NCBI GenBank assembly: GCA_002714185.1
Contig: PAWM01000020.1
Location: 11,666 to 75,665 of the forward strand
Reading direction: 5' to 3'
Length of the DNA stretch: 64,000 nucleotides
Origin: Flavobacteriales bacterium
GTDB taxonomy: Bacteria > Bacteroidota > Bacteroidia > Flavobacteriales > TMED113
The notes below the pieces were generated by a model. It was not told the DNA's origin. It searched no databases and saw only the letters and a program-made list of their open reading frames with translations. Position numbers and translations under genes: made by a program. Each line of letters opens with the position of its first letter. Position 1 is the first letter of the stretch. Below, piece by piece: positions 20,932 to 63,608 of the stretch.

Positions 20932-21534
20932 ATGATTCCAATTAAAGAAACATTTTTATCTTTTCAAGGAGAAGGTTATTTTGCTGGTCAAGCTTCTTAT
21001 TTTATCAGAACTCAAGGTTGTGATATTGGATGTCATTGGTGCGATGAGCCAGCTTCATGGGAGTTTAAATCTGGTATTAATCAATCTTTGTCCAATATTC
21101 TTAAAGATATAAAAAAATCAAATGTTAAAAATGTTATTGTCACTGGTGGTGAACCACTAATACATGATTTATCGAATTTAACGAATGAAATAAGTAAAAA
21201 TAACTTTTCTTTACATTTAGAAACTTCGGGCAGTTATGCATTGACTGGAAATTGGAATTGGATTACTTTATCACCTAAAAAAATTAGACCACCTTTAAAA
21301 TCGATATATTCACATACTTCAGAATTAAAAGTAGTTATTTATAATAATAAGGATTTTGAATGGGCTCTAGAGCAAGAAAGAAATATATCTAAATTTAATA
21401 ATGATTGCTTATTATATCTACAGCCAGAGTGGAGTAGGAAAGAGATTATGCAACAGCAAATTCTTGATTTTATATCAAAAAACCCTAGATGGAAGCTGTC
21501 ATTGCAAATGCATAAATATTTAAATGTGAAATGA
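20932..21534 (+). CDS. queE: 7-carboxy-7-deazaguanine synthase (radical SAM)
   Basis: 200-aa ORF. FQGEGYFAGQASYFIRTQGCDIGCHWCD cluster motif. Confidence 0.75.
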   Translation: MIPIKETFLSFQGEGYFAGQASYFIRTQGCDIGCHWCDEPASWEFKSGINQSLSNILKDIKKSNVKNVIVTGGEPLIHDLSNLTNEISKNNFSLHLETSGSYALTGNWNWITLSPKKIRPPLKSIYSHTSELKVVIYNNKDFEWALEQERNISKFNNDCLLYLQPEWSRKEIMQQQILDFISKNPRWKLSLQMHKYLNVK

Positions 21535-22400
21535 AATTTATATCAGTATTATTGATTGTTTTTTTTACTCAAAATTGCTTTAGTCAAGATAAGTGTGGAA
21601 GTGCAAATAAAAAATTGAGAAAAATTGAAAAACATATAGCTAAAGGTGATAATAATAAAGCAGTTAATTTATTATTAAAAATTGAAGATAAATGTGATGA
21701 AGAATTGTTTTTAATCTCTGTAGCAGATATATATTATTCATTAAACAAAATAAAAAAATCCTATCTTTTTTACTTACAAAGTTTCCAAAAAGGAAGTATA
21801 TTATATATGAATAATATATCCGTTTCTAATTTTTTAAAATCATCTTATAGTACAGGTCATTACAATACTTTTAATGATATTATTAATGATTCTAATTTTA
21901 AGATGGTTTTAAATAAAGAATTAAAGAGGATTAAAGAAAAAAACTCTTTTGCTATAAATAATAAAAATGATTCAATTATTTTTAACCCTAATTCAATTGA
22001 TATTAATAGCTCTAATGATGAATACTTTCCTTCTATGCCAATTAATTCGGATATTCTAATATTTACATATAGAAATAATGATTCATTATTTCAAGATGAG
22101 AATTTTTATATTTCTAGAAAAATAAATGGCTCTTGGCAGTTTCCATTAAAATTAGGTGATAATATTAATAGTACTTATAGAGAAGGTTCACTTTCTGTTA
22201 GTCTTGACGGGAAGGATATTTACTTTGCTTCTTGTCATAGACCTGATAGTTACGGTGGGTGTGATCTTTATTATTCTACATTAATTAACGATACACTTTG
22301 GTCTCAATCTAATAATATTGGTTCTAGTATTAATACTAAATACTGGGAGACACAACCATCTATTTCTGCTGATGGAAATACACTTTTTTTTTGTAAGTAA
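21531..22400 (+). CDS. OmpA-family outer-membrane/peptidoglycan-associated protein, N-terminal fragment (TPR plus TolB-like repeats); frameshifted
   Basis: Signal peptide followed by TolB-like WD40 repeat motifs (EYFPSM, GKDIYFAS, WETQPSISADGNTLFF). It terminates 3 codons after a T9 run at 22384-22392. Confidence 0.7.
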   Translation: MKFISVLLIVFFTQNCFSQDKCGSANKKLRKIEKHIAKGDNNKAVNLLLKIEDKCDEELFLISVADIYYSLNKIKKSYLFYLQSFQKGSILYMNNISVSNFLKSSYSTGHYNTFNDIINDSNFKMVLNKELKRIKEKNSFAINNKNDSIIFNPNSIDINSSNDEYFPSMPINSDILIFTYRNNDSLFQDENFYISRKINGSWQFPLKLGDNINSTYREGSLSVSLDGKDIYFASCHRPDSYGGCDLYYSTLINDTLWSQSNNIGSSINTKYWETQPSISADGNTLFFCK

Positions 22401-23397
22401 TAGATATGGGGGCTATGGCGGATCAGATATTTGGATGTCGAAAAAAATAAACAGTATTTGGAGTGAACCAATTAATCTTGGACCTGAAGTCAATACATCT
22501 AGTGATGAGTCAACACCTTTTTTGCATTATGATAATAAAACTTTATATTTTGCTTCTAAAGGGCATAAGGGATTTGGAGGATATGATGTGTTTTCTGCTA
22601 ATATTGATAATCAAGGAAAAATATTAAATGTATCTAATTTAGGCTATCCTATTAATACTCATTATGATGAATCAGGACTCATTGTTGCAAGAGATGGTAA
22701 ACAAGCTTATTATAATTCCAATGTAACAGATGATTTAAACATTTATTCATTTAATTTACCTGAAAAAAATAAAGCTAATTCTATTGCTATTATTAATGGT
22801 ATTGTTATTGATTCTATTAGTCAATTAGGAATGGAGGCAGAGATTATAATTAATGAGTTGAATTCTATTATTGAATATAAAATATCCTCAGATGACGACG
22901 GAGTTTTTTCTTCACCTATTCCCCTTAATTCAGAATTTTCTATTACTGTCTTATGTGATGGATATGATTTTTTTTCATCTAATTATTATTTAAATAAAAA
23001 TGAGTATATAAAAGATGTAGTAATAGTTTTAAATCGATTAAATATTGGTAATAAAATTAATTTAGAGAATATATATTATGAGTTTAATGATTATTCCTTA
23101 AAGGAAGAGTCTTTAATTACAATTCAAAAGTTAGCAAATTATTTACTTGTAAACCCAAATATAAAAATACAAATAGAAGGTCACACTGATAATATTGGCT
23201 CTAAATCATACAATAATAGATTATCTGAAAAAAGAGCAAAATCTGTATATCTTGCCTTGATTCAGTGTGGTATTTCGCCATATCAATTAAGTTACAAAGG
23301 TTATGGTTTCTCAATTCCATTAATTGACGAGGACAATGATTTAGCAAGAATAAAAAATAGAAGAACAGAAATAAAAATTATTGGAGATTATGAATAA
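22393..23397 (+). CDS. OmpA-family protein, C-terminal fragment (TolB-like repeats, CarboxypepD_reg-like domain, OmpA domain)
   Basis: Continues the upstream repeat in another frame (VSNRYGGYGGSDIWMS...). OmpA motif: IQIEGHTDNIGSKSYNNRLSEKRAKSV...RRTEIKI. The track ORF starts at 22318, but its first 25 codons merely overlap the upstream fragment. Confidence 0.7.
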   Translation, partial: VSNRYGGYGGSDIWMSKKINSIWSEPINLGPEVNTSSDESTPFLHYDNKTLYFASKGHKGFGGYDVFSANIDNQGKILNVSNLGYPINTHYDESGLIVARDGKQAYYNSNVTDDLNIYSFNLPEKNKANSIAIINGIVIDSISQLGMEAEIIINELNSIIEYKISSDDDGVFSSPIPLNSEFSITVLCDGYDFFSSNYYLNKNEYIKDVVIVLNRLNIGNKINLENIYYEFNDYSLKEESLITIQKLANYLLVNPNIKIQIEGHTDNIGSKSYNNRLSEKRAKSVYLALIQCGISPYQLSYKGYGFSIPLIDEDNDLARIKNRRTEIKIIGDYE

Positions 23398-50807: not shown

Positions 50808-50838
50808 AAAAAAGGCTCCATTTGGAGCCTTTTTTTTT
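50808..50838. terminator. Bidirectional intrinsic terminator between convergent dnaK and dnaA
   Basis: A6 (50808-50813), stem GGCTCC (50814-50819), loop ATTT, stem GGAGCC (50824-50829), T9 (50830-50838). The T-run overlaps the dnaA stop codon. Confidence 0.8.
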
Positions 50839-52261
50839 ATGGTAGTGAGAATTTTTTTTCTAATTCTTGTACATATTGTCTAAAATCTTTGTCTGTATCT
50901 ACAAGATTATTTACAGTTTTACAGGCATGTAATACTGTTGCATGATCTTTGCCACCGCATCTTGCTCCGATATTTGCTAAAGAAGATTTAGTTAATTGTT
51001 TAGAAAAATACATTGCAAGTTGTCTTGCTTGTACAATATTTCTTTTTCTTGTTTTAGATTTCAATGTATCAATTGATAAGTCAAAATAGTCACAAATAAC
51101 CTTTTGTATATAATCAATAGATACTTCTCTTGTTGTATTTTTTACAAATCTATCAATCATTTCTCTAGCAAGTGAAATCGATATTTCTTTTTTATTTAAA
51201 GAAGCTTGGGCAAGTAAGGATATTAATGCACCTTCTAATTCTCTAATATTTGTTGAAATACTATATGCTAAATATTCTAAAACATCATTAGCTATATCAA
51301 TACCGTCAGTATGCATTTTCTTTTTTAAAATAGCAATTCTGGTTTCTAAATCAGGTTGCTGAAGATCAGCTGATAATCCCCATTTAAATCTAGATAAAAG
51401 CCTTTGTTCCATTCCAGTTAAGTCAACAGGTGGTCTATCTGATGTTAATATAATTTGTTTATTGTTTTGGTGCAAATGATTGAAAATATGGAAAAATATA
51501 TCCTGTGTTTTTTCTTTAGACGAAAAAAATTGGACATCATCAATAATAAGAGTGTCAACCATTTGATAAAAATGTGAAAAATCATTTCTCGTATTATTTC
51601 TTATAGATTCAATAAATTGCTGAGTAAATTTTTCCGCAGAAACATATAATACTGTTTTACCTGGGTGTAATTCTTTTATTTTAATTCCAATAGCATGAGC
51701 TAAATGTGTTTTTCCTAATCCCACTCCTCCATATATTAAAAGTGGATTAAATGATGTTCCTGCAGGTTTTTGTGCTACAGCAAAGCCAGCAGACCTTGCT
51801 AATCTATTACAAGATCCTTCAATAAAATTTTCAAATGAATAGTTTATATTTAGTTGAGAATTAATTTGAACTTTTTTAAGGCCAGGAATTATAAAGGGAT
51901 TTTTAAATTTTTTATCTAAAACTTGAATTGGAACTGAGTGAGCAGGATTATTGTTTAGTTTTTTATTTATACTTGGTATTTCAACTGAATAAGGAGATTT
52001 TTTATCATTATTAATAATAATATTATATAATAACTTACCCTCTTTACCAAGTTCTTTTTTTATTGCTGTCTTGATAAGGTCAATATAATTTTCTTCTAAC
52101 CACTCGTAAAAGAATTTACTTGGAACTTCTACAGTAAGTATACTTTTCTTTAATTTAATAGGACGAATTGGTGAAAACCAAGTATCATAACTTTGGCTAT
52201 TAATATTATCTTTAATAAAAGACAAGCATTTTGTCCAGACGATTTCGGGGGTTAGTTCCAT
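50837..52261 (-). CDS. dnaA: Chromosomal replication initiator protein DnaA
   Basis: 474-aa ORF. Walker A GGVGLGKTHLAHAIG, Walker B/box VII IDDVQFF, C-terminal DNA-binding helix GGKDHATVLHA. Confidence 0.96.
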   Translation of the reverse strand: MELTPEIVWTKCLSFIKDNINSQSYDTWFSPIRPIKLKKSILTVEVPSKFFYEWLEENYIDLIKTAIKKELGKEGKLLYNIIINNDKKSPYSVEIPSINKKLNNNPAHSVPIQVLDKKFKNPFIIPGLKKVQINSQLNINYSFENFIEGSCNRLARSAGFAVAQKPAGTSFNPLLIYGGVGLGKTHLAHAIGIKIKELHPGKTVLYVSAEKFTQQFIESIRNNTRNDFSHFYQMVDTLIIDDVQFFSSKEKTQDIFFHIFNHLHQNNKQIILTSDRPPVDLTGMEQRLLSRFKWGLSADLQQPDLETRIAILKKKMHTDGIDIANDVLEYLAYSISTNIRELEGALISLLAQASLNKKEISISLAREMIDRFVKNTTREVSIDYIQKVICDYFDLSIDTLKSKTRKRNIVQARQLAMYFSKQLTKSSLANIGARCGGKDHATVLHACKTVNNLVDTDKDFRQYVQELEKKFSLP

Positions 52262-53580: not shown

Positions 53581-54429
53581 ATGTTTAAAATTGATTACAT
53601 AAAGATAAAGTTTGAAGAATCATTGATAAATCATTATTCTGCTAATGAAATATTATCAATGTGGAATTTATGGGTGCTAAAATATATATTTAAAATATCT
53701 CAAATTGATTATATTCTTAATAGAAATTATGTGGTTTTACAACGTCATAAAAAACAGGTGGATAATTTAATTAAACATCTGCTCAAAAATCAACCAATTC
53801 AGTATTTTTTTGGTTTTACATATTTTAAAAATTTAAAAATTATTATTAACGATAATGTTTTAATTCCTAGACCTGAGACTGAAGATTTAATTGATATTTT
53901 TTTTTCACAAACTAATTTTTTTTCTTTTAAAAAGATTATTGATATAGGAACAGGTTCAGGATGTATTGCAATTGCAATTAAAAAAAAAATAGAATCTCAT
54001 GTTTATGCAATAGATATTTGTGATGAAGCTCTTAAAATTGCTAAACAAAATTCAGTTGCAAATAATGTTCAGGTTGAATATAATAAAATTGATATTTTAA
54101 ATATTAATAACCATCATTTATTGCCTAAAATTGATTGCATTGTTAGTAATCCTCCATATGTCCTTCCATTAGAAGTGCCTAATGACTCCATAATTCATTC
54201 AGAACCAAAAAATGCAATTTTTGTTCCACCTGATAATCCATTAATTTTTTATGAAGCTATAATTAAGTTTGCAAATTCTAATTTAAATTTAGGTGGAAAA
54301 ATTTTTTTAGAAATAAATCCTATACTAATTTCAGATTTAACTAATCTAATAAAAAAATATGGGTATTTTAATATCAAAATTCATAATGATTTTTATCAAA
54401 AAAAAAGATTTATAGTTGTATCTTCTTAA
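53581..54429 (+). CDS. prmC: Release-factor glutamine N5-methyltransferase
   Basis: 282-aa ORF. IPRPETE, DIGTGSGCIAIA, catalytic NPPY (VSNPPY). Confidence 0.85.
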   Translation: MFKIDYIKIKFEESLINHYSANEILSMWNLWVLKYIFKISQIDYILNRNYVVLQRHKKQVDNLIKHLLKNQPIQYFFGFTYFKNLKIIINDNVLIPRPETEDLIDIFFSQTNFFSFKKIIDIGTGSGCIAIAIKKKIESHVYAIDICDEALKIAKQNSVANNVQVEYNKIDILNINNHHLLPKIDCIVSNPPYVLPLEVPNDSIIHSEPKNAIFVPPDNPLIFYEAIIKFANSNLNLGGKIFLEINPILISDLTNLIKKYGYFNIKIHNDFYQKKRFIVVSS

Positions 54430-54433
54430 GTAT

Positions 54434-55033
54434 ATGTCAGATAATTTAATTAAAAAAAGGATTATAGAATTACAGGATTTATTAAATCGGTATAATTACC
54501 TTTATTATGTTTTAGATGCTCCAGAAGTAAGTGACTATGAATTTGATTCATTGATGTCTGAATTAATTAAATTAGAAAATCAGTATCCTGAACTCACAAA
54601 TGATTTCTCTCCCACAAATAGAGTTGGTGGTCAGCCTATTGATTCATTTAAAACAATCCCTCATAAATATCCTATGCTATCCTTGTCTAATACTTATGCT
54701 AAAAATGAGTTAGAAGAATTTGATACAAGAGTAAAAAAAATATTAAATATTGATAGTATTGATTATACGTGTGAGTATAAATATGATGGTGTTGCAATAT
54801 CTATTGTTTATGAAAATGGTATTTTAAAACATGGAGTAACTAGAGGAAATGGTATTGCTGGTGATGATGTAACTAACAATATCAAAACTATTAAATCTAT
54901 TCCGTTAAAATTATTTGGTGATTACCCTAAATTATTTGAAATAAGAGGAGAAATTTTTATAAAAAAAAATAATTTTAAAAATATAAATTATCAAATCGAA
55001 AAAAAAAAAAATAAAACTATTAGAAGATTATAA
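54434..55033 (+). CDS. ligA: NAD-dependent DNA ligase LigA, N-terminal fragment (Ia plus most of the adenylation domain); frameshifted
   Basis: MSDNLIKKRIIELQDLLNRYNYLYYVLDAPEVSDYEFD (domain Ia). Adenylation lysine motif CEYKYDGVAI. TRGNGIAGDDVT. Ends shortly after an A13 run (54999-55011). ATG at 54434 is preferred over the track start at 54416. Confidence 0.85.
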   Translation: MSDNLIKKRIIELQDLLNRYNYLYYVLDAPEVSDYEFDSLMSELIKLENQYPELTNDFSPTNRVGGQPIDSFKTIPHKYPMLSLSNTYAKNELEEFDTRVKKILNIDSIDYTCEYKYDGVAISIVYENGILKHGVTRGNGIAGDDVTNNIKTIKSIPLKLFGDYPKLFEIRGEIFIKKNNFKNINYQIEKKKNKTIRRL

Positions 55034-55055
55034 TAATAAGAAATCAAATAAAGAT

Positions 55056-56549
55056 TTGTCGATTGAAGATTTAAATAAATTACAAAAAAAATATATTGCT
55101 GAAAATAATAAATTAGAAAAGTATTCAAATGCTAGAAATTTTGCATCCGGTAGTTTAAAATTACTTGATAGTTCAAAAGTTGCAAAACGAAATTTAGATT
55201 GTGTTCTATATGCATTATATGGTGAAAATCTTCCACATGATAATCATTTAGATAACTTAGAAAAAGCAAAAAGTTGGGGTTTTAATATATCGAATAGTAT
55301 TACAGTATCTAATAATATTACTCGCCTGATGGAAAATATTAATAGAATTGATATACAAAGAAATACTTTACCTTTCGAAATTGATGGTGTAGTAATTAAA
55401 GTAAACAAAATAAGTTATCAAAATATTTTAGGTAATACAGCTAAATCACCCCGTTGGGCTATTTCTTATAAATTCAAGTCTATTCAAGCTGAAACTTTAT
55501 TAAAAAATATCACATATCAAGTTGGAAGAACTGGATGTATTACCCCAGTTGCAGAACTGTCTCCTGTAAATCTTGCAGGAAGTGTAATTAAAAGAGCTAG
55601 CTTACATAATTATGAATATATTAAAAAAATGGGATTACAAATAGGTGATACTGTAATAATTGAAAAAGGAGGTGATGTTATTCCTAAAGTTGTTTCTATT
55701 AATTTATTAAAAAGAAATAATTTATGCAGGAATATTAATTTTATTATTAATTGTCATTCCTGTGGATCTAGATTGGAAAAGAATCAAACAGAAGCAAATT
55801 TTTATTGTTTAAATATTTATAATTGTTTGCCTCAAAGAATTGGAAGTGTTGAACATTTCATTTCTAGAGATGCACTGAATATTCAAACATTAGGTTCTAA
55901 AACAATTGAACTATTATTTAAAGAATTACTTATATCAAATATTTCTGATTTATATTTTTTAAATTTAGATTCATTTATTGGTTTACCTGGTTTTGGAGAA
56001 AAATCAGGCTCTGTAAAAAAAGCTGAAAATATACTTTTTAGTATTAATGAGTCTAAAATGATTCCATTTGATAAAGTTTTATATGGTTTAGGTATTAGAT
56101 ATGTTGGTAAAACTGTTTCAAAAAAACTTGTAAATTATTTTAGGTCAATAAGTAAATTGATGGCAGCATCGTATGAAGATTTATTAGAAGTCGATGAAAT
56201 TGGTGAAAAAATAGCTCAAAGTGTAGTTGGTTTTTTCTCGAACAGTTATAATTTAAATCTCATTAATAGATTGCAAAAGGCTGGATTGTTATTTGAAATT
56301 CAAACTCATAAAAATAAATCTTATAAACTATTAAAATTATCGTTTGTTATTTCAGGATCATTTACTGTTTCAAGAGAGGATTTAAGAAATATAATTGAGG
56401 ATAATGGAGGTAAAAATATGACTTCAATTTCTTCAAAAACAAGTTTTTTAATATCTGGTGAAAAAATGGGTCTTAAGAAAAAAGAAAAGGCTATTAGATT
56501 AAATGTTCCTATAATATCTGAGTTTGAATTCTATGAAATGCTTAAATAA
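55056..56549 (+). CDS. ligA: NAD-dependent DNA ligase LigA, C-terminal fragment (end of NTase, OB, Zn finger, HhH, BRCT)
   Basis: SNARNFASGSLKLLD, FEIDGVVIKV, RWAISYKF, Cys4 CHSCGSRL...CLNIYNC, IRYVGKTVSKKL, BRCT-like FVISGSF...SISSKTSFLISGEKMG. This frame is open from 54987, through the A13 run. Confidence 0.85.
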   Translation: MSIEDLNKLQKKYIAENNKLEKYSNARNFASGSLKLLDSSKVAKRNLDCVLYALYGENLPHDNHLDNLEKAKSWGFNISNSITVSNNITRLMENINRIDIQRNTLPFEIDGVVIKVNKISYQNILGNTAKSPRWAISYKFKSIQAETLLKNITYQVGRTGCITPVAELSPVNLAGSVIKRASLHNYEYIKKMGLQIGDTVIIEKGGDVIPKVVSINLLKRNNLCRNINFIINCHSCGSRLEKNQTEANFYCLNIYNCLPQRIGSVEHFISRDALNIQTLGSKTIELLFKELLISNISDLYFLNLDSFIGLPGFGEKSGSVKKAENILFSINESKMIPFDKVLYGLGIRYVGKTVSKKLVNYFRSISKLMAASYEDLLEVDEIGEKIAQSVVGFFSNSYNLNLINRLQKAGLLFEIQTHKNKSYKLLKLSFVISGSFTVSREDLRNIIEDNGGKNMTSISSKTSFLISGEKMGLKKKEKAIRLNVPIISEFEFYEMLK

Positions 56550-58097: not shown

Positions 58098-59090
58098 ATG
58101 ATTACAAAAGATATAGAATTAATTGATCAAAAGATATCTAAAGAAAGTGCTTTTATTGATGATTTATTTCTTGAAATAAATAAAACAATTGTAGGTCAAG
58201 AACATATGATTGAAAGATTGTTAATTGGTTTGTTGGGTTCAGGTCACATTTTATTAGAAGGAGTCCCAGGTTTAGCAAAAACACTTGCTATAAATACACT
58301 TTCAAGTGCTATTAAAGGTAAGTTTAATCGAATTCAATTTACACCTGATTTATTACCATCTGATGTTATTGGGACTTTAGTGTATAATATTAAAGCAGGA
58401 GATTTCAGTATTAAAAAAGGACCAATTTTTGCAAATTTTATTTTAGCTGATGAAATTAATCGATCACCTGCTAAAGTGCAAAGTGCTTTACTTGAGGCAA
58501 TGCAAGAAAGACAAGTAACAATTGGAGATGAAACATATCCATTAGATAATCCTTTTTTAGTTTTAGCTACTCAAAATCCTGTTGAGCAAGAGGGGACATA
58601 TCCATTACCAGAAGCTCAAACTGATCGTTTTATGCTTAAGACTATTATTGATTATCCTAAGAAAGAAGAAGAAAAAATAATTATTAGAAATAATTTATCA
58701 GAAAAAACAACAAAAATTAAACCTGTTGTTTCAATAAAAAAAATTATTGATTCTAGAAAATTAATTAATCAGATTTATATGGATCAAAAAATTGAAAATT
58801 ATATTCTTGATATAGTATTCTCAACTAGAAATCCAAAAGAATATAATTTAAAAGATTTAGAAAATTTAATCAATTTTGGCTCTTCTCCTAGAGGAAGTAT
58901 TAATTTAGCAAAAGCTGCAAAAGTATATGCATTCATTAAAAGAAGAGGTTATGTGATACCAGAGGATGTTAGAGCAATTTGTCACGATGTACTAAGACAT
59001 AGAATTGGTTTGTCCTATGAAGCTGAAGCTGAAAATATAACTACTGAAGAGGTTATTGATAAAATTTTAAACACAATCGAAGTCCCATAA
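58098..59090 (+). CDS. MoxR-family AAA+ ATPase
   Basis: 330-aa ORF. Walker A LLEGVPGLAKT, Walker B ILADEINR, ATQNPVEQEGTYPLPEAQTDRF. Confidence 0.9.
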   Translation: MITKDIELIDQKISKESAFIDDLFLEINKTIVGQEHMIERLLIGLLGSGHILLEGVPGLAKTLAINTLSSAIKGKFNRIQFTPDLLPSDVIGTLVYNIKAGDFSIKKGPIFANFILADEINRSPAKVQSALLEAMQERQVTIGDETYPLDNPFLVLATQNPVEQEGTYPLPEAQTDRFMLKTIIDYPKKEEEKIIIRNNLSEKTTKIKPVVSIKKIIDSRKLINQIYMDQKIENYILDIVFSTRNPKEYNLKDLENLINFGSSPRGSINLAKAAKVYAFIKRRGYVIPEDVRAICHDVLRHRIGLSYEAEAENITTEEVIDKILNTIEVP

Positions 59091-59950
59091 TGGAAACATC
59101 TGAGCTATTAAAAAAAGTTCGTAAGATAGAAATTAAGACAAAAAGATTAACTAATAATCTTTTTACTGGTCAGTATCATAGTGCATTTAAAGGTAAGGGT
59201 ATGCTTTTTAGTGAGGTAAGAAAGTATGTTCCTGGTGATGATGTAAGAGATATTGACTGGAATGTAACTGCAAAATTGTCTGAACCTTATATTAAAATAT
59301 TTGAAGAGGAAAGAGAGTTAACTTTAATGCTTATGGTAGATGTGTCAGGTTCCGAATTGTTTGGTACTTCGATGCTGAAAAAGGATATTATAACTGAAAT
59401 ATGTGCAGTTCTTTCATTTTCTGCAATGCAGAATAACGACAAAGTTGGAGTGTTATTTTTTACTGATGAAATTGAGTTGTTTATTCCTCCAAAAAAAGGA
59501 AAAAAACATATATTACGTATTATACGAGAGTTAATTAATTTTAAACCTACGAGAAAAAAAACGAATATTTCTAAAGCATGTCAATACTTAAATAATATTG
59601 TCAAAAAGAAATCTATTATATTTATTTTATCTGACTTTCTTGATAATAATTTTCAACAATCATTAAATCTTTTATCAAAGAAACATGATTTAAATGGTAT
59701 AAGAGTATATGATAAATTCGAAAAAAGTCTTTTTCCTATAGGCTTAAGTTTGTTTTTTGATCCAGAAACTGATTCACATCTTTGGGTAGATACAGCCGAT
59801 AAAGAAGTTAGAAATAATATTCAAAAATCTTTTTATGATAAAGAGATTTATTGTAAAAAATCATTTTTAAAAACAGGTGGCTCAATTGTTGATATATCAA
59901 CAAATGAATCATATGTTGTCAAATTATTAGAGTTATTTAAGAAAAAATGA
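59090..59950 (+). CDS. DUF58 domain protein (MoxR partner)
   Basis: 286-aa ORF. GDDVRDIDWNVTAKL motif. VWA-like MVDVSGS. Start overlaps the moxR stop (TAATG). Confidence 0.8.
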   Translation: METSELLKKVRKIEIKTKRLTNNLFTGQYHSAFKGKGMLFSEVRKYVPGDDVRDIDWNVTAKLSEPYIKIFEEERELTLMLMVDVSGSELFGTSMLKKDIITEICAVLSFSAMQNNDKVGVLFFTDEIELFIPPKKGKKHILRIIRELINFKPTRKKTNISKACQYLNNIVKKKSIIFILSDFLDNNFQQSLNLLSKKHDLNGIRVYDKFEKSLFPIGLSLFFDPETDSHLWVDTADKEVRNNIQKSFYDKEIYCKKSFLKTGGSIVDISTNESYVVKLLELFKKK

Positions 59951-60849
59951 AATATATATATTTTGTATTATTATTAATTTCATGTTCATTGTTTTCACAA
60001 AGTCTTATAATTGAAACTGATACAAATTTTTTACGTATTGGTGAACAATTTGATTTAAAATTAAAGGTTTATGATGTCGAAAAAGAAAATATTATTTGGC
60101 CCTTGGGAGATTCAGTTTTAAATGATTTTGATTTAATTAATGAAGAGTCATCTTTGTTGTTTTTTCAAAGTGATACTTATGTGTACAAAAATTATCTTTT
60201 AACTTCATTCGATACTGGTAAATTTATTATTGATAGTATATATGTGTTAAATCAATTAAATGATACTCTATTTTCTAATTCTTTAATTATGAATTTTATT
60301 GCAATGCCTTTAGATTCAACGGATAAGTTTTTTGATATAAAGCCACCAAAAAAAATACCCTTTTTAACTCGAGAATTATTATATTATTTACCATACTTTT
60401 TACTATTTTTATTTTTATGTATTTGTATATATACTTATGTTAAGTTTTTTAATCAAAAGCCAGTTCAAAATAATGATTTTCTTACTCCATCTATTCCAAT
60501 CGATGTGTATTTTTTAAATAAATTAAGTGATTTGAAAAAAAAGAAATATCTAGAAAGTAAAAAATATAAAGATTTTTACACTGAACTATCTGAAATCTTT
60601 AGAGGGTACTTAGAGTTAAGGTTTAATATTTCTGCTTTAGAATCAACTTCCTATGAACTAAAGAATATGTTAAATGATTTAAATATAAAAGAGCAATGGT
60701 TTACTAATTTTTTCAGAAATAATGATATTGTCAAATTTGCAAAAGGTATACCTCCTTTAAAAGAGAGTAAAGATTTTTTAACTAGTGTTCAATTATTCAT
60801 TAAATCAAATGGTGCAGGTGATCTTGATAATATAAACAATAAAGAATAA
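59947..60849 (+). CDS. Bat-operon membrane protein (hypothetical; signal peptide plus one TM helix)
   Basis: 300-aa ORF. Its position between DUF58 and batA matches the third gene of the Bacteroides Bat operon. TM segment LLYYLPYFLLFLFLCICIYTYV. Confidence 0.5.
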   Translation: MKYIYFVLLLISCSLFSQSLIIETDTNFLRIGEQFDLKLKVYDVEKENIIWPLGDSVLNDFDLINEESSLLFFQSDTYVYKNYLLTSFDTGKFIIDSIYVLNQLNDTLFSNSLIMNFIAMPLDSTDKFFDIKPPKKIPFLTRELLYYLPYFLLFLFLCICIYTYVKFFNQKPVQNNDFLTPSIPIDVYFLNKLSDLKKKKYLESKKYKDFYTELSEIFRGYLELRFNISALESTSYELKNMLNDLNIKEQWFTNFFRNNDIVKFAKGIPPLKESKDFLTSVQLFIKSNGAGDLDNINNKE

Positions 60850-60859
60850 ATACCATTAT

Positions 60860-61840
60860 ATGAATTTTTTACATCCTCTTTTTTTCTGGTTATTATTATT
60901 GATACCAATTTTAATTGTATTCTATTTTTTTAAGGGAAAAAATCAATTTTCAAGTATTTTATTTACTATTCCAACTAAAATGTCATTTGGAATCAAAGCA
61001 AAACTATATCCTTTATTATTTATATTTCGTCTATTAACTATTATATTTCTTGTTTTTGCTTTAGCAAGACCTCAATCGACAGAAGTAAGTAGTGATACAC
61101 TAAAAAAAGAAGGTATAGATATTATGATTGCAATGGATATTTCTAGTAGTATGTTAGCTGAAGATTTCAAGCCTAACAGACTAGAATCTGCAAAAGAGTT
61201 AGCGATTGAATTTATAAACAGGAGAAAAAATGACAGGATTGGTTTAGTTACATATGCCTCTGTTAGTTTTACTCAATGTCCTTTAACTACTGATCATGAT
61301 ATTTTAATTAATATGATGAATGAAGTTAAAACAGGAATTTTAACAGATGGAACTGCAATTGGTGTTGGATTATCCAATTGTATTAACAGATTAAAGGATA
61401 GTAAAGCTGATAGTAAAATAATTATTTTACTTACTGATGGTGAGAATAATAGTGGTGTTATTGATCCAATTAGTGCAGCAAACATTGCTAGAAAATATAA
61501 TATAAAAACTTATACTATTGGAGTTGGATCTTATGGGACAGCTCCTTATCCAGGCGAAGATGTATTTGGTCGACCAACATATTATAATGTTCCCTCTAAT
61601 ATTGATGAAGATATGTTAACATTAGTTGCAGATACAACTGGGGGAGTATATTTTAGAGCAGATAAAAAAAGTAAATTAGCTCAAATTTATGAAGAAATTG
61701 AGTTGCTTGAAAAAACTGAAATAGAAGAGATTAAATATTATAATGTAACAGAAAAGTATTTTGTATTTTGTCTAATTGCATTTTTATTATTTATTATTGA
61801 GTTGTTATTAGATTATACTATTTTTAGAAAAGTTGTGTAG
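60860..61840 (+). CDS. batA: VWA-domain membrane protein BatA
   Basis: 326-aa ORF. N-terminal TM pair, MIDAS IDIMIAMDISSSM, LLTDGENNSG, C-terminal TM. Confidence 0.8.
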   Translation: MNFLHPLFFWLLLLIPILIVFYFFKGKNQFSSILFTIPTKMSFGIKAKLYPLLFIFRLLTIIFLVFALARPQSTEVSSDTLKKEGIDIMIAMDISSSMLAEDFKPNRLESAKELAIEFINRRKNDRIGLVTYASVSFTQCPLTTDHDILINMMNEVKTGILTDGTAIGVGLSNCINRLKDSKADSKIIILLTDGENNSGVIDPISAANIARKYNIKTYTIGVGSYGTAPYPGEDVFGRPTYYNVPSNIDEDMLTLVADTTGGVYFRADKKSKLAQIYEEIELLEKTEIEEIKYYNVTEKYFVFCLIAFLLFIIELLLDYTIFRKVV

Positions 61841-62853
61841 TGGATTTTGCAAAACCTGAATTATTAAATCTTTTTTTTGGAATACTTGTCTTAACTCTTG
61901 TATTTTACATTTATTTTATTTGGCAAAGAGATATAGTAAACAATCAATTTAACAAAGATATCTTTAAAAAGATAAATCCTAATTATAGTAGTATTTTAAA
62001 AATAATACATTTTATAATTAGGTTAATTATTGTTTGTTTATTGATTTTTGCACTGGCAGGCCCAAGATTAGGCTCAAAACTAAAAACTGTGACAAGAGAG
62101 GGAGTAGATGTAGTATTTGCTTTAGACATATCAAAAAGTATGTTGGTTGAAGATGTTGCTCCAAATAGACTATTAAAAAGTATACAAATTATATCAAAAG
62201 CAATTGATGATTTAGTTTCTGATAGGATAGGTATTATAGTATATGCTGGCGAAGCATTACCATTAATGCCTCTGTCTTTGGATTATTCTATGGCTAAATT
62301 ATTAATTAAAAGTATTGATACTGATATGTTGCAGCTTCAAGGAACAGATGTTTCAAGTGCAATTTCATTATCAAATTCATTTTTTGATAATGATGAAAGA
62401 AGTAAAATTATTTATATTATCTCGGATGGTGAAGAACACGAAGGGGATTATCAGGAAGAAATTACAGGTTTAGTTGAGAAAAATACAGTAATTTGTGCAA
62501 TTAATATTGGTACTCAAGCAGGTGGTCCAATACCGGTAAAGAATGTACAAAAATTATATTATAAGAAAAATAAAAATGGAGATGTTGTGATTTCTAAATC
62601 AAGCTCAGAAGCTTTACAGTCAATTTCTTCATTTTGCAACGGTTCATTTATAAAGACTAACAATACAAGTGATGCAGTAGAGTTTATATTTAATAATATG
62701 AAAAATTTGGATAAGTCAATTGAAGATGAAGAAGTTTATTCAGATTATGAAGATCAATTTCAATGGTTTTTAGCTTTTGCTTTATTCTTTCTATTGATAG
62801 ACTTGATATTAACTCAAAAGAAAATTAATTTTATTAGAAAAATAATTAAATAA
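61840..62853 (+). CDS. batB: VWA-domain membrane protein BatB
   Basis: 337-aa ORF. GTG start overlaps the batA TAG by 1 nt. MIDAS VDVVFALDISKSM, IISDGEEHEG, C-terminal TM. Confidence 0.8.
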   Translation: MDFAKPELLNLFFGILVLTLVFYIYFIWQRDIVNNQFNKDIFKKINPNYSSILKIIHFIIRLIIVCLLIFALAGPRLGSKLKTVTREGVDVVFALDISKSMLVEDVAPNRLLKSIQIISKAIDDLVSDRIGIIVYAGEALPLMPLSLDYSMAKLLIKSIDTDMLQLQGTDVSSAISLSNSFFDNDERSKIIYIISDGEEHEGDYQEEITGLVEKNTVICAINIGTQAGGPIPVKNVQKLYYKKNKNGDVVISKSSSEALQSISSFCNGSFIKTNNTSDAVEFIFNNMKNLDKSIEDEEVYSDYEDQFQWFLAFALFFLLIDLILTQKKINFIRKIIK

Positions 62854-63608
62854 TGATTAAAAGTGTTTTTTTCTTTTTTCTTTTGCTTTCTCTTTTTGTT
62901 TTCTCACAAAATGAGAGAAGTATTGCTAGAGACGGAAATGAAAATTATAATAATAGTCTTTTTGCAGAATCAGAAGTGCAATATAGAAAGTCATTATCTC
63001 ATGATAAAAACTTTGAAGAAGCGAAATTTAATTTAGCTGCTACTTTATTTAAACAAGATAGATATGATGAATCTTTAAGTGTTTTAAATGATTTAATTTT
63101 AAATACAGAAAATATAATTACTAAATCTGAGGCTTATTATAATATTGGAAATAATTTTTTAAAACAACAAAAATTAGAAGAAGCTATTTCTTCATATAAA
63201 GATTGTCTACGTATCAATCCCGCTGATGAACAAGCAAGATATAATTTATCTAAAGCTATGTCATTATTAGAGAATCAACCACAGCAAAATGATCAAAATC
63301 AACAAAATGATCAAAATCAACAAAATGAAGAAGAGAAAAAAGAGCAAAACTCTGGTGAAACAGATGGTGAAAATGATGACAATAATAAAGATAATGAAAC
63401 TGATAATCAAAATAATGGGAATAATGAAGATAGAGATAATGATGATTCAAAAAATAATCAGGAGTCAAAAATAGATGGTGATAATTTGTCAAAGAAGGAA
63501 ATTGAAAGAATATTAGATGCTTTGGAAAGAGAGGAACAGAAAGTTCAAGAAGAGATGCGAAAGTTAAAAATCAACACATCTAATAAAAATATAGAAAAAG
63601 ATTGGTGA
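62853..63608 (+). CDS. batC: TPR protein BatC with D/N/Q/E-rich low-complexity segment
   Basis: 251-aa ORF. Signal/TM segment and TPR units (AYYNIGNNFLKQQKLEEAISSYKDCLRINPADEQARYNL). Position after batB. Confidence 0.7.
   Translation: MIKSVFFFFLLLSLFVFSQNERSIARDGNENYNNSLFAESEVQYRKSLSHDKNFEEAKFNLAATLFKQDRYDESLSVLNDLILNTENIITKSEAYYNIGNNFLKQQKLEEAISSYKDCLRINPADEQARYNLSKAMSLLENQPQQNDQNQQNDQNQQNEEEKKEQNSGETDGENDDNNKDNETDNQNNGNNEDRDNDDSKNNQESKIDGDNLSKKEIERILDALEREEQKVQEEMRKLKINTSNKNIEKDW
63285..63328 (+). repeat. Tandem 18-nt repeat CAAAATGATCAAAATCAA (2 full copies plus a partial) encoding QNDQNQ units in batC
   Basis: Read directly: 63285-63302 and 63303-63320 are identical; 63321-63328 repeats the first 8 nt. 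Confidence 0.7.

Follow-up and report, generated by a model that had tools for sequence, protein, structure and literature searches.

An extra adenine that splits the DNA ligase gene ligA in a marine Flavobacteriales contig is probably an artefact of one assembly

The ligA locus and its reading frames

The stretch of DNA analysed here (the window; 64,000 nucleotides of contig PAWM01000020.1, assembly GCA_002714185.1, positions 11,666 to 75,665) has a G+C content of 26.7% and carries a gene for an NAD-dependent DNA ligase (ligA) that is divided between two reading frames (Table 1). In frame 0 the gene starts at ATG 54434 or TTG 54416 and reads across a run of 13 adenines as GAA AAA AAA AAA AAT AAA ACT ATT AGA AGA TTA TAA, the premature stop codon at 55031-55033 being a consequence of the extra A. 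The +1 frame has a TAA at 54984-54986, is then open, and offers its first start codon, a TTG, only at 55056. Removal of one A from the tract gives a complete ligase of 704 amino acids, and over the 2.1 kb of the gene this single frameshift is accompanied by no further stops or indels. A sequence-only reading had taken the two ORFs for halves of one ligA, put out of frame by a one-base excess in a 13-A tract through which the second frame is open from 54987. The window sequence bears this out in every respect, and the corrected protein carries all of the LigA domains.

With its 13 bases the tract exceeds every other homopolymer of the 64-kb window, the nearest being five runs of 10. A run of 12 or 13 adenines is within chance for DNA of this composition, since it was matched by 47 of 100 dinucleotide shuffles; what is notable is the location of the run rather than its existence. 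The gene dnaA (50837-52261, minus strand) lies three genes upstream of ligA, and a MoxR-DUF58-BatA-BatB-type (aerotolerance-like) operon lies downstream (58098-63608, plus strand). The gene order around ligA is kept in a relative whose LigA is 73% identical.

Table 1. Features of the ligA locus, and of a second split gene, in the window
Feature	Position	Strand	Remarks
T9 homopolymer, PD40/OmpA gene	22384..22392	+	Window-private +1; T8 elsewhere
ligA 5' part	54434..55033	+	Domain Ia and first part of adenylation domain with KxDG; ends at premature TAA
A7 tract, ligA codons 5-7	54446..54452	+	In frame in window and scaffold_105; A6, out of frame, in L001, L002 and L004
ligA 3' part, +1 frame	54987..56549	+	Rest of adenylation domain, OB, Cys4 Zn finger, HhH, BRCT
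K/N-rich insert, nucleotidyltransferase domain	54998..55118 (LigA residues 189-228)	+	A tract at its 5' edge
A13 homopolymer	54999..55011	+	A12 (E-K-K-K-I) in all four other contigs
G>T, synonymous (Val), ligA	55691	+	Window-private
C>A, LigA Pro441His in zinc-finger CPxC	55756	+	Window-private; Pro in four other contigs and nearly all aligned relatives

The low G+C content had raised the question of an endosymbiont origin. This was rejected: Tara Oceans seawater is the source of the near-identical contigs, and the genes present (TonB receptor, Por-secretion tail proteins, the Bat/MoxR operon and uvrA) are those of a free-living organism. To judge from its sequence relatives, the organism is a free-living planktonic member of the marine Flavobacteriales.

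The corrected ligase and its K/N-rich insert

With the tract shortened to A12, the product has its domains in the canonical order: Nlig-Ia, adenylation, OB, zinc finger, HhH and BRCT. Domain searches assigned the N-terminal part to PF01653 (9.7e-78) and PF22745 (4.8e-08), and the C-terminal part to PF03120, PF12826 and PF00533, with residues 195-669 of the E. coli enzyme (PDB 2OWO) aligned; the zinc finger family PF03119 fell under its cut-off, all four cysteines being nevertheless present. The alignment to E. coli LigA runs from end to end (E = 1e-138). It places the motif CEYKYDG on the KxDG motif around K115 of that enzyme, and the sequence SNARNFASGSL is also found. The adenylation motif ascribed to the first half of the gene, and the Cys4 zinc finger, HhH and BRCT elements ascribed to the second, are thus all in place, and the protein shares with E. 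coli LigA and other NAD-dependent ligases the full set of Ia, nucleotidyltransferase with KxDG, OB, zinc finger, HhH and BRCT domains.

The window LigA differs from that of E. coli in a K/N-rich insert between EcLigA residues 188 and 195, where query residues 188-229 align to residues 188-195 of 2OWO. The excess had been put at roughly 30 amino acids and measures 34 against this structure. A homologue search recovered marine Flavobacteriales proteins from MAGs and metagenomes (696-707 amino acids, 53-73% identity) and a single match, P0001, that is 100% identical; among the matches listed from GTDB species-representative contigs, which carry generic LigA motifs, the best LigA identity was 50%, which places the organism no more finely than Flavobacteriales. 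A separate search of the GTDB species representatives by 8-mer patterns of a single protein found no relative. About 30 of the marine LigA proteins of 696-707 amino acids have the insert in frame, with the common motif KxEKKY...KKLExYSN, and the LigA proteins of Flavobacterium and other Bacteroidota (663-682 amino acids) are without it. The presence of an open frame across the clade marks the K/N-rich insert as a predicted translated and conserved feature, specific to the marine Flavobacteriales.

Tract length and private changes in near-identical contigs

Over its full 64 kb the window shares 99.98% identity with scaffold_105 of the Tara assembly TARA_SAMEA2621278, a scaffold of 77.7 kb that is collinear with positions 1-64000 (segments L109, L019, L013 and L003). 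Further contigs, reached through P0001 and the neighbouring genes, come from Tara Oceans seawater assemblies and are 99.9-100% identical to the window. Four contigs other than the window span the tract (L001, L002, L003 and L004, from at least two samples and representing three haplotypes), and all four have A12 and an open junction. The ligA of scaffold_105, 99.9% identical to that of the window, is one intact ORF of 704 amino acids. Its 5' part has the same sequence as that of the window save for the length of the tract, and its protein differs from the A12-corrected window protein solely by H441P.

An alignment to the ligA genes of relatives, which had been proposed as a check, gave the same answer: about 30 relatives all encode the tract region in one frame, and the near-identical contigs have A12. 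The closest relative (P0002; 73% amino acid identity, 26.5% G+C) has here the codons GAA AAA AAG AAA TTA, that is A7-G-A3, and reads GAAAAAAAGAAA in frame; the tract itself is therefore not conserved, and the lysine run is not even kept in more distant relatives. A pattern scan of JGI metagenomes that allowed the tract to vary in length found no match.

A second length variant lies near the start of ligA, where three of the contigs have A6 for the A7 of the window and scaffold_105 (Table 1). The A6 is found around positions 83-88 in L001 and L004 and around 28-33 in L002. In these contigs the gene is called from an internal methionine, Met48 (P0001, 664 amino acids), with loss of the first 47 codons and of the NAD-binding domain Ia. 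The A6 is either a true population variant or a low-coverage error, the depth of L004 being ~4.8x.

Only 13 differences separate the window from scaffold_105, namely 11 substitutions and two indels. Each indel adds one base to a long homopolymer and thereby breaks a reading frame: the A13 of ligA, and a T9 for T8 that splits the gene of a 621-amino acid outer-membrane protein with PD40 and OmpA domains into 21531-22400 and 22318-23397 (plus strand). T8 and an undivided PD40/OmpA ORF occur in six contigs (L019, L020, L021, L022, L024 and L026), which derive from four or more datasets. When every homopolymer run in the window (at least 6 bases of A/T or 5 of G/C) was checked for merger of ORFs at ±1, nine candidates emerged. 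Seven of these were rejected as adjacent unrelated genes, which left the ligA tract and the T9 as the true splits. In the other long runs the window and the Tara scaffold agree, at all five of the A10/T10 runs and at 18 of 19 runs of nine.

The substitutions have a marked bias, eight of the 11 being G:C>T:A, with T or A in the window and G or C elsewhere (1116, 3063, 37759, 38627, 47086, 55691, 55756 and 62557); for six of the eight, contigs of a second sample confirmed that the change is private. Such a cluster is the pattern expected of oxidative (8-oxoG) damage. Nine of the 11 are non-synonymous, several of them with radical replacement of a conserved residue. Besides Pro441His in the LigA zinc finger, they include two in UvrA (G500C, within the motif QIGSGL, and A789D, within EEALEFF), S175Y in ClpB, L422I in GyrA and two changes of Asp to Tyr. 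As a set, the private changes appear to be unfiltered by selection. Exact-sequence look-up found four window-private products to be absent from an index of 153 billion genes, and the shared alleles of neighbouring genes were found on 5-14 contigs each. ligA accounts for three of the 13 private differences (post hoc binomial P = 0.008).

Origin of the thirteenth adenine

Judging from the four contigs with A12, the split in ligA is no trait of the organism, and we infer a technical cause for the thirteenth A, which is most probably an artefact of the window assembly arising by damage, amplification or consensus calling. The ligA of the lineage would then be normal and intact, a single ORF with an in-frame A12 (GAA AAA AAA AAA ATA, or E-K-K-K-I). 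Template damage of the 8-oxoG type, together with polymerase slippage, may have altered the sequence, and the changes may have become fixed in the consensus either because the whole genome was amplified from a single template or a handful, or because read depth was very low. The private changes, skewed towards the 8-oxoG type and seemingly unfiltered by selection, fit such a course of damage and slippage when taken with the +1 insertions in homopolymers: A13 and T9 are private to one assembly, independent assemblies agree on A12 and T8, and the remaining private differences resemble errors in their base bias and in the conserved residues that they alter. Whole-genome amplification inflates loss-of-function indels in homopolymers (PMC5467262). 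As in the homopolymer artefacts of amplified (WGA/MDA) or low-depth assemblies, a long A/T run has gained one base in a single assembly and an essential gene thereby seems to be inactivated; the window also shares with them a further error of this type and G>T/C>A changes typical of damage. It differs from them in that most of its other long runs are correct, which indicates a modest error rate; the likeness is one of sequence. The accuracy of the A10/T10 runs (5/5) and the nine-base runs (18/19) means that homopolymer errors are not systematic, which counts against an artefact in general and disfavours a crude long-read homopolymer problem in particular. Two further observations could be turned against an artefact: the enrichment of private differences in ligA could mean relaxed selection on a truly broken gene, and the G:C>T:A bias could be the true mutation spectrum of an organism with 26.7% G+C.

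The most serious competitor, although an unlikely one, is that the A13 is a real, private and recent product of replication slippage in the sequenced cell or clone, some A12 transcripts being supplied by slippage of RNA polymerase. Sliding of ribosomes on poly(A) could add to the yield; rescue of this kind would be passive and unselected, with no evolved mechanism behind it. The tract, as the longest homopolymer in the window, is the site most prone to slippage of DNA polymerase. The A7 and A6 alleles of natural contigs at codons 5-7 suggest that homopolymers are unstable in the population, the correctness of the other long runs speaks against any gross homopolymer problem, and the same enrichment of private differences in ligA agrees with a genuine lesion. 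The frequency of transcription indels rises exponentially with the length of A/T runs (PMC5574713), and for frameshifted genes of endosymbionts a full-length share of about 30% of transcripts is reported (PMC3017870), so that a real A13 would almost certainly give some A12 transcripts. Against this, the allele occurs in no other contig, and the sequence that bears it has numerous further radical changes, also private, in proteins that are essential or conserved. Nine non-synonymous changes and two frameshifts in 64 kb extrapolate to a few hundred genome-wide; such a load is implausible for a wild, viable cell of a population whose remaining sampled members hardly differ from one another. A broader version, in which A13, T9 and the A6 of the Tara contigs would all be real, calls for hypermutable A/T tracts in a streamlined, very AT-rich bacterium, perhaps with reduced mismatch or 8-oxoG repair, and for cells with a frameshifted ligA that survive by RNA polymerase slippage; this we consider quite improbable.

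A ligA that is out of frame throughout the lineage and is read by way of programmed slippage in transcription or programmed frameshifting of ribosomes, as in Blochmannia and Buchnera or in dnaX, is the least probable reading of all, and the comparative data refute it. In its favour is the general precedent of A/T-tract frameshifts retained in AT-rich genomes (PMC3017870, PMC5009743). As far as the slippage-rescued genes of Buchnera and Blochmannia are described in those two sources (Tamas et al. 2008, as cited there), the likeness is real: an AT-rich genome of about 26% G+C, and a one-base indel in a poly(A) run of at least nine within an information-processing gene that is otherwise intact, as is the window ligA with its A13 for an in-frame A12 and its lack of any other stop or indel. 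In the same accounts, however, such frameshifts persist in different populations and species, the organisms being obligate endosymbionts of tiny effective population size, whereas that of the window is confined to a single sequence and is missing from the population of its free-living marine flavobacterium. Retention is just what is missing here: the other contigs are in frame at the tract, the tract of the nearest relative is interrupted and in frame, about 30 relatives use a single frame, and the organism is planktonic with a very large population. Nor does the locus look like a programmed ribosomal frameshift, which would call for a 3' stimulatory structure and a conserved two-frame arrangement. 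Folding of the RNA 3' of the tract was no better than that of shuffled sequences (z = -0.72), and an Rfam search of the whole window gave no matches. The suggestion that the gene might be rescued in the manner of endosymbionts, as an evolved feature, thus fails on the free-living host, the private frameshift, the G that interrupts the tract in the relative and the lack of structure; by these comparisons the frameshift is not a maintained trait.

Only slightly better placed, and still very improbable, is the reading of ligA as a genuine pseudogene whose function another ligase takes over. The radical P441H in the zinc finger and the enrichment of private changes in ligA speak in its favour. The frameshift is nevertheless a lone one in 2.1 kb without other stops or indels, the gene matches intact copies at 99.9% identity, and its neighbourhood is kept in the 73% relative; no second ligase was seen within the 64-kb window. 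At the level of the lineage the intact A12 copies exclude a dead gene.

Of the sequence-only reading, then, the anatomy stands (two halves, an excess A and a K/N-rich segment). Among its three explanations a homopolymer error of sequencing or assembly is favoured by the four near-identical contigs with A12 and the intact ORF of scaffold_105; a gene dead across the lineage is set aside on the same evidence, and evolved rescue on the private nature of the frameshift, the free-living host, the interrupted tract of the relative and the absence of RNA structure.

The main value of an assembly artefact of this sort, if that is what the thirteenth A is, lies in the quality flag that it raises: neither the split of ligA nor that of the PD40/OmpA gene should be taken for gene loss, pseudogenisation or recoding, in a window that carries about two private error-like changes per 10 kb. 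Were the A13 confirmed, the organism would be a rare instance of a free-living bacterium in which transcriptional slippage makes a frameshifted, essential gene of replication tolerable; were all of the length variants real, phenotypic rescue of the endosymbiont type would extend to an abundant planktonic bacterium.

Metagenome assemblies often break within ligA, between 54427 and 56285. Logan contigs of SRR7617330 end at 54427 and restart at 56078, and three contigs from different assemblies (L006, L008 and L009) all start at 56285, which points to variation among strains in the gene or to a problem of coverage there.
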